From Amphiscolops sp. MND2022 (lineage: Eukaryota): a stretch of DNA of 64,000 bases. A program made the translations under genes and the position numbers. Positions 43,939-46,293 of this stretch are shown piece by piece (the stretch's first letter is position 1; every line of letters starts with the position of its first letter). The DNA lies in the NCBI GenBank assembly GCA_964187785.1, contig OZ076409.1:28894001-28958000 (forward strand), written 5' to 3'. The notes below the pieces were generated by a model. That model did no database searches and had not been told where the DNA came from. It was given only the letters and a program-made list of their open reading frames with translations.

Positions 43939-46293
43939 ATGCTGTTCTTTCTTGCCTACCTTGCTTTCACTCCTGCTTCCGTTTCTAGTCAATGGTCATC
44001 TAACATTGAAGCCTCTAATAACCCTAATGATCTTCTAGAAAAAGGAATACTATTTAACGAGCGCAATAAAATCTTGCTTACAGAAAAATTTATCAGTGTG
44101 GAATTCCTTGTTCCTTTTCCCACGTATGAATTTTCATTGAAACCAGATATCGAACAACTGATTCACCGCCTTTCACAAATGTGGGACTTGCCCTCTATTT
44201 TTTGTCCCCTGAATTTCTCTAGTCACTTTTCATCAAATTCTTCCGGATTCAACGTCAATTGGATGCTCTTTCAAATCAATCATGAGCTTCACGAATCGGA
44301 AAACGACCTAAACACTATCCGAAATGAAACCTCACTGTTTTTACGTCCACCTTCTGAACAACAACCACGTAAACGACGAGGCGCTGGTGTAGGCCTCGCT
44401 GCTCTGGCAGCTGTTGGACTTTTTGGAGGAGGTATCGCTATGGGAAGTTCCGACTCTTGTGGTCTTCAAGGAATTTTTGGGGGCTGTCACGATCAAGCCC
44501 AAGCCAATGCTGCCAACATACGGAGCCTTTCAGATTATCAAGATGTTCTGACACAATTTGTCACAGAGTTTCAACTGAACACTGACGAAAAATTCTTCCT
44601 AGTGAAAAACGAGCTCGCAGCTCTTCATGCGATACAAGCTGAAATGTCCGAAACTCAAAACCGCAATTGGGCCATCATACAAGAACAATTTGACGTGTTC
44701 GAAAATAACTTTCATATTTTACGCGACTGTAATCAAATGTTATTCTCTAACCAACAGTTGAATTTCAATTTTGATACTTTATCTTCGCTCCTTAGTATGG
44801 TTCATGCTAGCATCAAAGCCTTTCGCTCAGCTTTATATGCTTTTCGCATGAACATTCTTAACTCTATTCCTGTTATTTTGCGAGGTCATCTACCAATGTC
44901 GCTTATTCCGATGGAATCACTCCTCGTGATCTTGGAACGAGTAGCGATTGACCAAAGCAAGGCAACCGATCGCCTATCGTTAGCTATTCCGATGACCGAC
45001 CTCCTTTCATACTATGATTCTCGTTTGCTCGCGGATGCCGTTACAGTGCCAGAAGGAATCTTGATGACCCTTAGTATACCGTTGGCTTCTCGACAAACCG
45101 TTTTCACACTATTTGAGGCTAAACTAATTCCGATGCCTTACCCTGATGACCCTCAATTGGCTCTCAAGTGGGATATTGAGGCACCGTATTTAGCCATTTC
45201 AGAAGACCAAATGGAATCGTCAGTCCTATCCGAAGCACAATTCGAACAATGCCTCGGCTCTTCAAAATATCGCATATGCGCAGAAACTTTTCCGACCGAA
45301 ATGGGTCACTCTTCATGCATAGCGACGCTCTTCTTTGATTCCTCTGTTGATGCACTTTCCGTTTGTGATACTTCCTTAGTTTCTTTACCATCTACTGAAC
45401 AAGCCACTAACTTAGGTTTTGGTATCTGGCTAATAACATCTGCCAATGATGATTTCATATTCCGCGAATCTCATGCAACAGCCGCTTCATCGAAAACACA
45501 ATCATTTGCAGGCTGTCGTATCTGTATTATCACTCTTGAATGTGGCATGCAAATCATGACAAAACACATAAAAATCAGGTCCGACTTATCAAGTTGTTCT
45601 CATATACCCGCAATAAAACTGCAAGTTTCATTGCCAAACCCTCTAGCATCCTTAATCATGGAAGTTCCCCCTTTAGAGGATTTACCCTTATATGACTCGA
45701 AAGCAGAAGCAGGAGTGAAGCTTTTGAAACAAGTACGTAAAGAACTCGTACATAGTCCAAGAGTTCGTGAAGTCAACCGATTAGTGGACATAGCCCGTCC
45801 TCTAGCGAGTGATATGAAACTTTTGAAACCCTCGCTCACCCGCGAATTTAATCAATATGTCCCCTTTAAAGTTTCTTTCACTCTAACTATCGTCGTTTTT
45901 ATTGTTTCGACAATACTGCATTTACTATTCATGTACATCTATCACAAGTATCATCTAGCTGACAGACTGTTTCCCAAAAAACTGATCAAAAACAAATTCA
46001 ATGTAAAACCACGTCTCGATGTTCCAGACGAACATAAAGCGGCCTTGCCTGACCTTGAGAAAAAACTGGGACACCGCTTCAATTTTCGAGTCCCTTCCAA
46101 AAATAAAATGATTCATTTGCAACAACCATCCACCTCTTTCATGGCTGATTCCGTCATAGGTAATTTCACTGATGGAAATACACAACTCAGCAGTAGCATG
46201 ATTGATAATGTGCGCAGCCAGCTTACTGGCGGCAAACCTCTTGTCGCTCCTAATCAAATCCCCCCCGAACGTGAGCTTTCATCCAATTATTGA
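43939..46293 (+). CDS. env: Env, class I viral fusion glycoprotein (784 aa)
   Basis: Signal peptide, N-glycosylation sequons, furin site RKRR (44368-44379), Gly/Ala fusion peptide, heptad region, Cys-rich region, TM 45871-45942, long cytoplasmic tail. Confidence 0.93.
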   Translation: MLFFLAYLAFTPASVSSQWSSNIEASNNPNDLLEKGILFNERNKILLTEKFISVEFLVPFPTYEFSLKPDIEQLIHRLSQMWDLPSIFCPLNFSSHFSSNSSGFNVNWMLFQINHELHESENDLNTIRNETSLFLRPPSEQQPRKRRGAGVGLAALAAVGLFGGGIAMGSSDSCGLQGIFGGCHDQAQANAANIRSLSDYQDVLTQFVTEFQLNTDEKFFLVKNELAALHAIQAEMSETQNRNWAIIQEQFDVFENNFHILRDCNQMLFSNQQLNFNFDTLSSLLSMVHASIKAFRSALYAFRMNILNSIPVILRGHLPMSLIPMESLLVILERVAIDQSKATDRLSLAIPMTDLLSYYDSRLLADAVTVPEGILMTLSIPLASRQTVFTLFEAKLIPMPYPDDPQLALKWDIEAPYLAISEDQMESSVLSEAQFEQCLGSSKYRICAETFPTEMGHSSCIATLFFDSSVDALSVCDTSLVSLPSTEQATNLGFGIWLITSANDDFIFRESHATAASSKTQSFAGCRICIITLECGMQIMTKHIKIRSDLSSCSHIPAIKLQVSLPNPLASLIMEVPPLEDLPLYDSKAEAGVKLLKQVRKELVHSPRVREVNRLVDIARPLASDMKLLKPSLTREFNQYVPFKVSFTLTIVVFIVSTILHLLFMYIYHKYHLADRLFPKKLIKNKFNVKPRLDVPDEHKAALPDLEKKLGHRFNFRVPSKNKMIHLQQPSTSFMADSVIGNFTDGNTQLSSSMIDNVRSQLTGGKPLVAPNQIPPERELSSNY

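Follow-up and report, generated by a model that had tools for sequence, protein, structure and literature searches.

A Ty3/gypsy element combining an F-type env, a TARG1-type macrodomain at the end of Pol and a predicted spliced antisense gene

Rotifers, tunicates, cnidarians, ctenophores and arthropods are reported to carry Ty3/gypsy elements with an F-type env (PMC13524379). As far as the available part of that study goes, these Envs share a conserved furin site, a fusion peptide and an RSV-like fold, and an ancient acquisition is argued for them; their clustering does not mark them as recently derived from any one sampled virus family, and the pol tree rules out a single origin. Acoels are missing from the phyla sampled there, both in the study and in the supplements, to the extent that these are accessible. 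The rotifer TelKA and the planarian Burro elements (PMC5408684, PMC6431247, in their accessible parts), which were reported before that study, are non-insect, gypsy-like and equipped with a paramyxovirus-F-like env; compared by description, the TelKA env has about 600 aa and the Burro env lies in frame between gag and pol, which sets both apart from the env considered here. Features outside the gag-pol-env scheme also have precedents in the accessible descriptions of two further systems. The plant Retand elements have antisense coding downstream of pol (PMC11963269), and the Ty3/gypsy element Cer1 has a spliced accessory gene, CERV, which is an RNA export factor (PMC10309623). Both features have counterparts in the locus described below, which, in contrast to Retand, is an animal element with an env.

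The 64,000-nucleotide stretch of DNA analysed here (the window) contains, at 32698-46980, an intact 14.3-kb Ty3/gypsy LTR element with an env, in which all frames are open and whose order, as read from the sequence, is LTR-PBS-gag-pol-gap-env-PPT-LTR. The LTRs, both on the forward strand (32698-33048 and 46630-46980), are 351 bp long, identical to each other and bounded by TG...CT, and a 5-bp target duplication, ATTGA, is present on each flank of the element. The primer-binding site (33049-33066, forward strand) starts with TGG immediately after the 5' LTR, and a purine-rich tract (46613-46629, forward strand) adjoins the 3' LTR. The gag gene (33818-35104, forward strand) encodes 428 aa with a weak zinc knuckle; an A-AAA-AAC slippery heptamer lies at its end, with pol in the -1 frame, and no strong RNA structure is predicted 3' of the slippery site (-3.8 kcal/mol). 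The pol frame (34963-40614, forward strand) is open for 1883 codons and contains a protease, assigned by motif only, followed by RT, RNase H, the integrase H2C2 finger and the rve core in the Ty3/gypsy order. Its matches, in a comparison confined to Pfam profiles, are to the gypsy-type models RT_RNaseH, RT_RNaseH_2 and Integrase_H2C2. The two LTRs, the PBS, the polypurine tract and the target duplication, together with the Pol order and an intact env after pol, make the element an errantivirus in the broad meaning of the term. Its gag belongs to a cluster of 35 members and there are two env clusters of 18 and 21 members, and six further full-length env proteins have identities of 99.4% or more to the one encoded at 43939-46293. 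Judged from sequence, the element family is young and multi-copy, and the insertion is recent.

The resemblance to the elements of the above-mentioned survey extends to the gag-pol-env order, the LTRs, the PBS, the near-identical copies, the layout of putative signal peptide, furin site, fusion peptide and TM segment, and the RSV-F-like fold. The differences lie in the pol-env gap, which is 3.3 kb here, whereas the first-pass filter of that survey, as given in its accessible part, allowed 1000 nt outside insects and its later steps examined 3000-5000 nt downstream, and in the presence of a Pol macrodomain and an antisense gene; the words "macro", "antisense", "accessory" and "splice" are absent from its main text. 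The element is set apart from the published set by description only, and the sequences of that set may include this family. On the whole, our main reading, to which we give a probability of roughly 0.8, is that of an intact Ty3/gypsy element of recent insertion that carries an env (an errantivirus, broadly defined) and took this env over from an old F-type pool. The env alone is one more family of the published F-type class and, as this class was described as widespread in 2026, it is of modest weight by itself. What is new, as far as can be predicted from the frames, is a gypsy element whose make-up recalls that of complex retroviruses, with a Pol macrodomain and an antisense spliced gene.

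The env gene (43939-46293, forward strand) encodes an F-type class I fusion protein precursor of 784 aa. It remains open for 784 codons, as compared to a longest stop-free run of 248 codons when the bases of this DNA were shuffled 1000 times, which bears out the intact frame reported in an earlier sequence-only reading of this locus. The same reading had pointed to a cleavage site followed by a fusion peptide (44368-44445, forward strand), and both are well supported. The RKRR motif at residues 144-147 is the sole R-x-K/R-R site in the protein, and the strongest hydrophobic window of the N-terminal region starts at residue 148 (Kyte-Doolittle 1.75), at the beginning of a Gly/Ala-rich fusion peptide spanning residues 148-169. 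An R-x-K/R-R site is common to 48 of the 53 rows that cover this position in a 65-row alignment, and the remaining five have R-x-x-R by eye. All 12 cysteines belong to the ectodomain, with only C89 preceding the cleavage site and eight falling within residues 438-553; their individual conservation ranges from 50 of 56 up to 65 of 65 alignment rows. The small subunit bears three N-glycosylation sequons. A single transmembrane helix (45865-45954, forward strand; about residues 643-672, or 643-677 in the structural model) is clear, with a hydropathy window peaking at 2.45 from residue 649, and a putative signal peptide is suggested by eye only, being weak by hydropathy (19-residue window below 1.5). 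The long heptad region (as long helices in the predicted model), the Cys-rich region and the TM segment previously noted are all present, and the tail, put at about 115 aa, measures about 110 aa. Mean identity in this tail is 17%, against 47-60% in the ectodomain and TM segment. The cleavage site, the fusion peptide and the cysteines persist even in homologues of about 25% identity, and this, taken together with the divergence of the tail, argues for long purifying selection on the ectodomain.

An AlphaFold2 model built on the 65-row alignment (pLDDT 74.7, pTM 0.59) displays two long helices at residues 183-257 and 264-314, with pLDDT of about 50-73 over the first, while the cleavage and fusion-peptide region falls below 50. 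A Foldseek search of the PDB gave 202 matches at E<=0.001, of which the best 38 are all paramyxovirus or pneumovirus F proteins (best E 4e-7). The top VIA-align match is postfusion Nipah F, with a modest Z of 8.9 and an rmsd of 4.4 A over 287 residues, and all the best 50 rows are again paramyxovirus or pneumovirus F. The structural matches have identities of only 4-15% and query TM-scores of 0.1-0.4. In a library of viral structures the best matches are the glycoproteins of Hubei myriapoda virus 8 (E 5e-22) and abalone herpesvirus (2e-20), followed by baculovirus F (E 8e-18), and the first paramyxovirus F0 appears at rank 35 (E 2e-7). Given this model, the env product is almost certainly an F-type class I fusogen by fold, and the predicted fold is class I, as the sequence-only reading had anticipated. 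Its description as paramyxovirus/pneumovirus-F-like therefore stands for the F-type fold recovered by Foldseek and VIA-align, but not for any special tie to these viruses, given that the invertebrate-virus glycoproteins and baculovirus F rank far above paramyxovirus F0. Complex prediction with three copies of residues 176-262 and three of residues 580-642, representing a putative six-helix bundle, returned a score of 0.03 and a mark of 0.34.

The env protein has no match to Pfam Baculo_F (PF12259) or Fusion_gly (PF00523) at E<=1, below the model cut-offs, and a PDB sequence search with it found no relevant match. Among its 65 aligned relatives, five match Baculo_F at E<=0.1 (best 3.6e-7), and one distant relative, P0231, exceeds the curated Baculo_F cut-off (29 bits versus 24.1). 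Atlas features of the env point to Baculo_F, on 12-23% of cluster members, and to Fusion_gly, at 0.95-0.96 with low recognition. The F proteins of RSV, Nipah, NDV and hPIV3 share with this env a short F2 and long F1, a multibasic cleavage site, an N-terminal fusion peptide and the head-and-stalk fold; they differ in that identity is 4-12%, the env has 784 aa with a long tail, and no attachment protein is seen in the element. Baculovirus F and the F-like glycoproteins of invertebrate RNA viruses and abalone herpesvirus provide the best structural matches, and some env relatives match PF12259, but the env protein itself does not and its identity to this group is 10-15%. Influenza HA2 was rejected as a relative, the profile matches (E 0.02 or worse) covering only a short Gly-rich peptide and a helix.

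The first of the two additional features is a macrodomain of the TARG1/OARD1 type, which forms the last ~140 aa of Pol (40198-40611, forward strand). Its matches are to human TARG1/OARD1 structures (E 1.1e-18), to the DarG model (E 6e-11, far under the model cut-off) and, at an E of only 0.13, to Pfam Macro. The published TARG1 pattern TKx(30,35)Px[IL]GxGxD, which spans the catalytic K84 and D125 (PMC6397177, in its accessible part), occurs at 40393-40521 and nowhere else in the six frames of the window. The domain thus fits the TARG1 catalytic pattern and looks catalytically intact, suggesting a putative ADP-ribosyl hydrolase. Macro domains in retroelements are not unprecedented, as macrodomain ORFs are known from fish epsilon-like ERVs (PMC4977317, in its accessible part); in contrast to these, to human TARG1/OARD1 and to bacterial DarG, the domain here makes up the C-terminal part of a Ty3/gypsy Pol. 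A published case of a TARG1-type domain on a gypsy Pol was not found in the literature covered, outside of which lie most subscription papers and Repbase. Both the macrodomain and the antisense gene are additions to the sequence-only reading, which contained neither.

The antisense gene occupies the pol-env gap, where four predicted exons on the minus strand combine into one stop-free frame of 380 codons, separated by three predicted GT-AG introns of 92, 70 and 64 nt. Predicted exon 1 (42091-42452, minus strand), with an uncertain start codon, holds the N-terminal half of an H2C2-like zinc finger, and predicted exon 2 (41733-41998, minus strand) a CxxC motif and a loop with an invariant Cys that resembles an OTU catalytic loop. 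These are followed by predicted exon 3 (41496-41662, minus strand) and the last predicted exon, exon 4 (41084-41431, minus strand), with a putative OTU His strand recognized by eye. Donor motifs on the minus strand of the gap are not enriched (8 seen versus 9.6 expected), and the support for the exons is hence comparative. A search with exon 2 yielded scores for five of eight candidates, four of them besides the query, and in these four relatives 67, 68, 61 and 47 of the 88 exon residues are identical, whereas on the intron side only 3 of 15, 6, 11 and 18 are. Conservation of exon 2 therefore begins and ends at the predicted splice sites. One relative (P0363) continues from exon 2 into exon 3 with 84% identity over 37 aa, and none of the five exon-2 lineages has lost the exon 2 Cys. 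The ORF of exon 4 is the same on 5 contigs and occurs as two variants on four more (9 contigs); 54 candidates included no longer homologue of it, which is weak evidence. Exon 2 is not the mere reflection of a coding frame on the sense strand, there being no plus-strand frame of at least 45 aa over 41752-41962. Given these comparisons, the antisense gene is very probably real and spliced.

Its biochemical identity is less certain. The HHCC motif spans the junction of exons 1 and 2, with two His in the former and CxxC in the latter, and its 5/35 spacing is longer than the 6/29 of the element's own integrase. Atlas ties exon 1 to Integrase_H2C2 (0.91; 130 of 256 features shared), a low count that serves as a lead only, and in pairwise comparison the antisense finger is no more similar to integrase fingers than expected by chance (460 of 1000 shuffles). 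Searches of Pfam, NCBIfam, PHROG and PDB with the antisense protein gave neither H2C2 nor OTU, and no OTU profile matched the single exons. By eye, exons 2-4 read like an OTU protease when set against the OTU consensus, with a Gly in the Cys loop at a position that is, as a rule, Asp in OTU proteases. The predicted fold of the P0363 relative, covering exon 2 and part of exon 3, has a pLDDT of 37 and structure-search Z values of at most 2.6. On balance, we lean slightly towards an OTU-like protein.

The possibility that best survives as an alternative concerns this gene: it could be cargo, a fragment of a DNA transposon with introns (similar to Ginger1 or Helitrons, with H2C2 and OTU) that inserted in an ancestor and is replicated with the element but of no help to it. 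Ginger1 transposases join H2C2, OTU and 1-4 introns, a layout like that of the antisense gene, and some Helitrons carry OTU (PMC2836005, in its accessible part). No link of the relatives P0363-P0365 to env-bearing contigs was found. Further, a scan of metagenomes recovered one broken env locus (L001), with an env 53% identical to ours and no trace of the antisense gene or pol, implying that the gene is not universal in the env family. The hallmarks of Ginger1, namely terminal inverted repeats and a DDE core, are however absent from the antisense gene: none of the 25 longest inverted repeats examined is a flanking terminal repeat, and the exons have no rve/DDE match. All four exons are open, and exon 2 of the relative P0362 is only 76% identical; the contigs of the P0362 cluster agree, in length only, with 4 contigs that bear an env subfamily of 96-98% identity. 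If the two indeed share contigs, the antisense gene would be diverging far faster than env. An exon 2 that stays open while diverging more than env fits selection or the swapping of a useful cassette. Given these observations, we consider cargo possible, though unlikely.

With respect to the origin of env, a profile search through 1.84 billion representatives retrieved 2397 at E<=0.001, and their identity to env grades smoothly from 98% to about 23%. In a FastTree phylogeny of env and 47 selected homologues env nests deep among its relatives; the tree is without a viral outgroup and hence cannot test viral origin. Scans of IMG/VR with env, Pol and antisense exon 2 gave no relative. The sequence-only reading had entertained an independent capture of a viral fusogen, for which we find no support, since env nests inside this deep radiation and the F-type class is, by the accessible part of PMC13524379, widespread and ancient in metazoan Ty3/gypsy elements. 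A separate capture would have the lineage take its fusogen from an invertebrate virus (a chu-like RNA virus, a baculovirus-like virus or a mollusc herpesvirus), unrelated to other errantivirus F-type envs. It could draw on the rank of invertebrate-virus glycoproteins as best structural matches, on top Atlas clusters labelled Negarnaviricota, albeit on only 3-6 recorded members, on the lack of a Baculo_F match in the env protein, and on the stance of PMC13524379 itself against a single origin. However, viral top matches are expected under either origin, as the structural libraries contain no errantivirus Envs. The family radiation is smooth and deep, so that any capture must be old, and the reported absence of a recent link between F-type Envs and any one sampled virus family also stands against it. 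We therefore regard a separate capture as improbable; the simplest reading is that env was probably inherited from the old F-type pool of errantivirus-type elements. That env is intact yet dispensable, with the element copying inside germline cells and env open only because of the youth of the insertion, is highly improbable: many cluster members are partial and, the LTRs being identical, the open frame alone says little, but full-length envs that keep the cleavage site, the fusion peptide and the cysteines are met in one family after another, to about 25% identity, as the tail diverges.

Signals for a spliced env RNA are also discernible. The leader contains a GT[AG]AG[TA] donor at 33446-33451 (forward strand), the sole strong sense-strand donor in the 14.3-kb element, as against 5.7 expected (1 of 200 shuffles as low). 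Sense-strand donors are depleted overall (3 versus 10.1 expected; 2 of 200 shuffles as low), and the flanks are not depleted. A pyrimidine tract with an AG acceptor (43880-43903, forward strand) lies 35 nt upstream of the env ATG. We infer that 33446 is the major donor for env RNA, with the predicted spliced form joining 33446 to 43903.

Under the main reading, the full-length RNA would be translated into Gag and, by -1 frameshifting, Gag-Pol, and the spliced RNA (donor 33446, acceptor 43903) into Env. Env would then enter the secretory pathway, where furin would cleave it behind residue 147, the small subunit probably being held to the large one through its single cysteine, C89, in an intersubunit disulfide. 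The Env trimer would insert its fusion peptide, refold its helices and fuse the membranes of particle and cell, most likely serving, by analogy to Drosophila, the transfer of the element from soma to germline. The TARG1-type ADP-ribosyl hydrolase on Pol may be packaged with integrase. The antisense spliced gene would be transcribed separately, its introns surviving since the genomic RNA has the opposite polarity. The most likely role of this accessory pair would be the removal of ADP-ribose and ubiquitin marks of the host.

A pairing of a macrodomain with a deubiquitinase is known from large RNA viruses. Complex retroviruses are marked by accessory genes, from which the host defences countered by these genes can usually be read. 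That both extras act against host defence is nonetheless a speculative proposal here. By the same token, we offer only as a doubtful conjecture a lineage of "complex" invertebrate errantiviruses combining an F-type fusogen with a counter-defence kit, in which a TARG1/DarG-type hydrolase accompanying integrase would free the proteins or the cDNA of the element from ADP-ribose, and a zinc-finger/OTU deubiquitinase, encoded antisense with introns, would evolve or be exchanged at a much higher rate than env. If the counter-defence reading is true, ADP-ribosylation and ubiquitin would be anti-retroelement defences in the host. With a young, multi-copy, intact element it can be tested directly, by biochemical means, whether retroelements outside vertebrates are restricted by ADP-ribosylation and ubiquitin. 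Such an architecture can escape surveys of env that demand a short distance between pol and env or take no account of introns on the antisense strand.

Rfam and tRNA scans were empty. Pol presumably resembles acoel elements. Intron-containing kinase and glucokinase genes also lie in the window and point to an animal-type eukaryotic host.

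Among the full-length homologues of the env ORF of the main gypsy-type element, P0030, P0033, P0034, P0036, P0038, P0041, P0060 and P0076 are each found on a contig of 2.6-4.0 kb, which is the size expected for a spliced env RNA. Three other homologues, P0002, P0342 and P0347, form a single env subfamily with 87-88% identity, and in this subfamily the frame remains open for a further 93 codons 5' of the signal peptide. On inspection by eye, P0347 appears to be a mosaic of two env subfamilies.

The region between pol and env contains an additional open frame of 126 codons on the plus strand (42565-42945), which has no match in Pfam, NCBIfam or PHROG, and a 25-nt A-rich run (43081-43105) situated about 135 nt downstream of it. 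This stretch may be another small ORF, or else a fragment that was retro-copied. On the minus strand there is an additional donor/acceptor pair (42509 and 42404) that could delimit a 5' intron of the predicted antisense gene of this region, in which case the start codon of that gene would lie at about 42398.

The main element lies approximately 1.1 kb downstream of an ADP-dependent glucokinase-like host gene (23186-31575, plus strand), whose last exon is recovered by Pfam (E = 3e-32) and whose upstream exon was recognized by eye. Inspection by eye also revealed exons of a second host gene, encoding a PAK-like kinase (53596-58967, plus strand). The window also contains a second, broken gypsy-type element (41-4932, plus strand) with RT, RNase H and H2C2 domains; it is about 24% identical to the Pol of the main element and harbors an internal duplication of ~800-870 bp. 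Other mobile elements include a Tc1/mariner-type transposase with an open frame of 344 aa (60114-61148, minus strand; HTH_Tnp_Tc3_2 and DDE_3) and decayed non-LTR retrotransposon-like fragments, identified by eye, at 14000-17400 (minus strand) and 20200-22700. A tandem array at 25000-28650 comprises units of ~740-920 bp, and related repeats are dispersed elsewhere in the window, at 12770-13500, 51100-52400 and 56650-58100.
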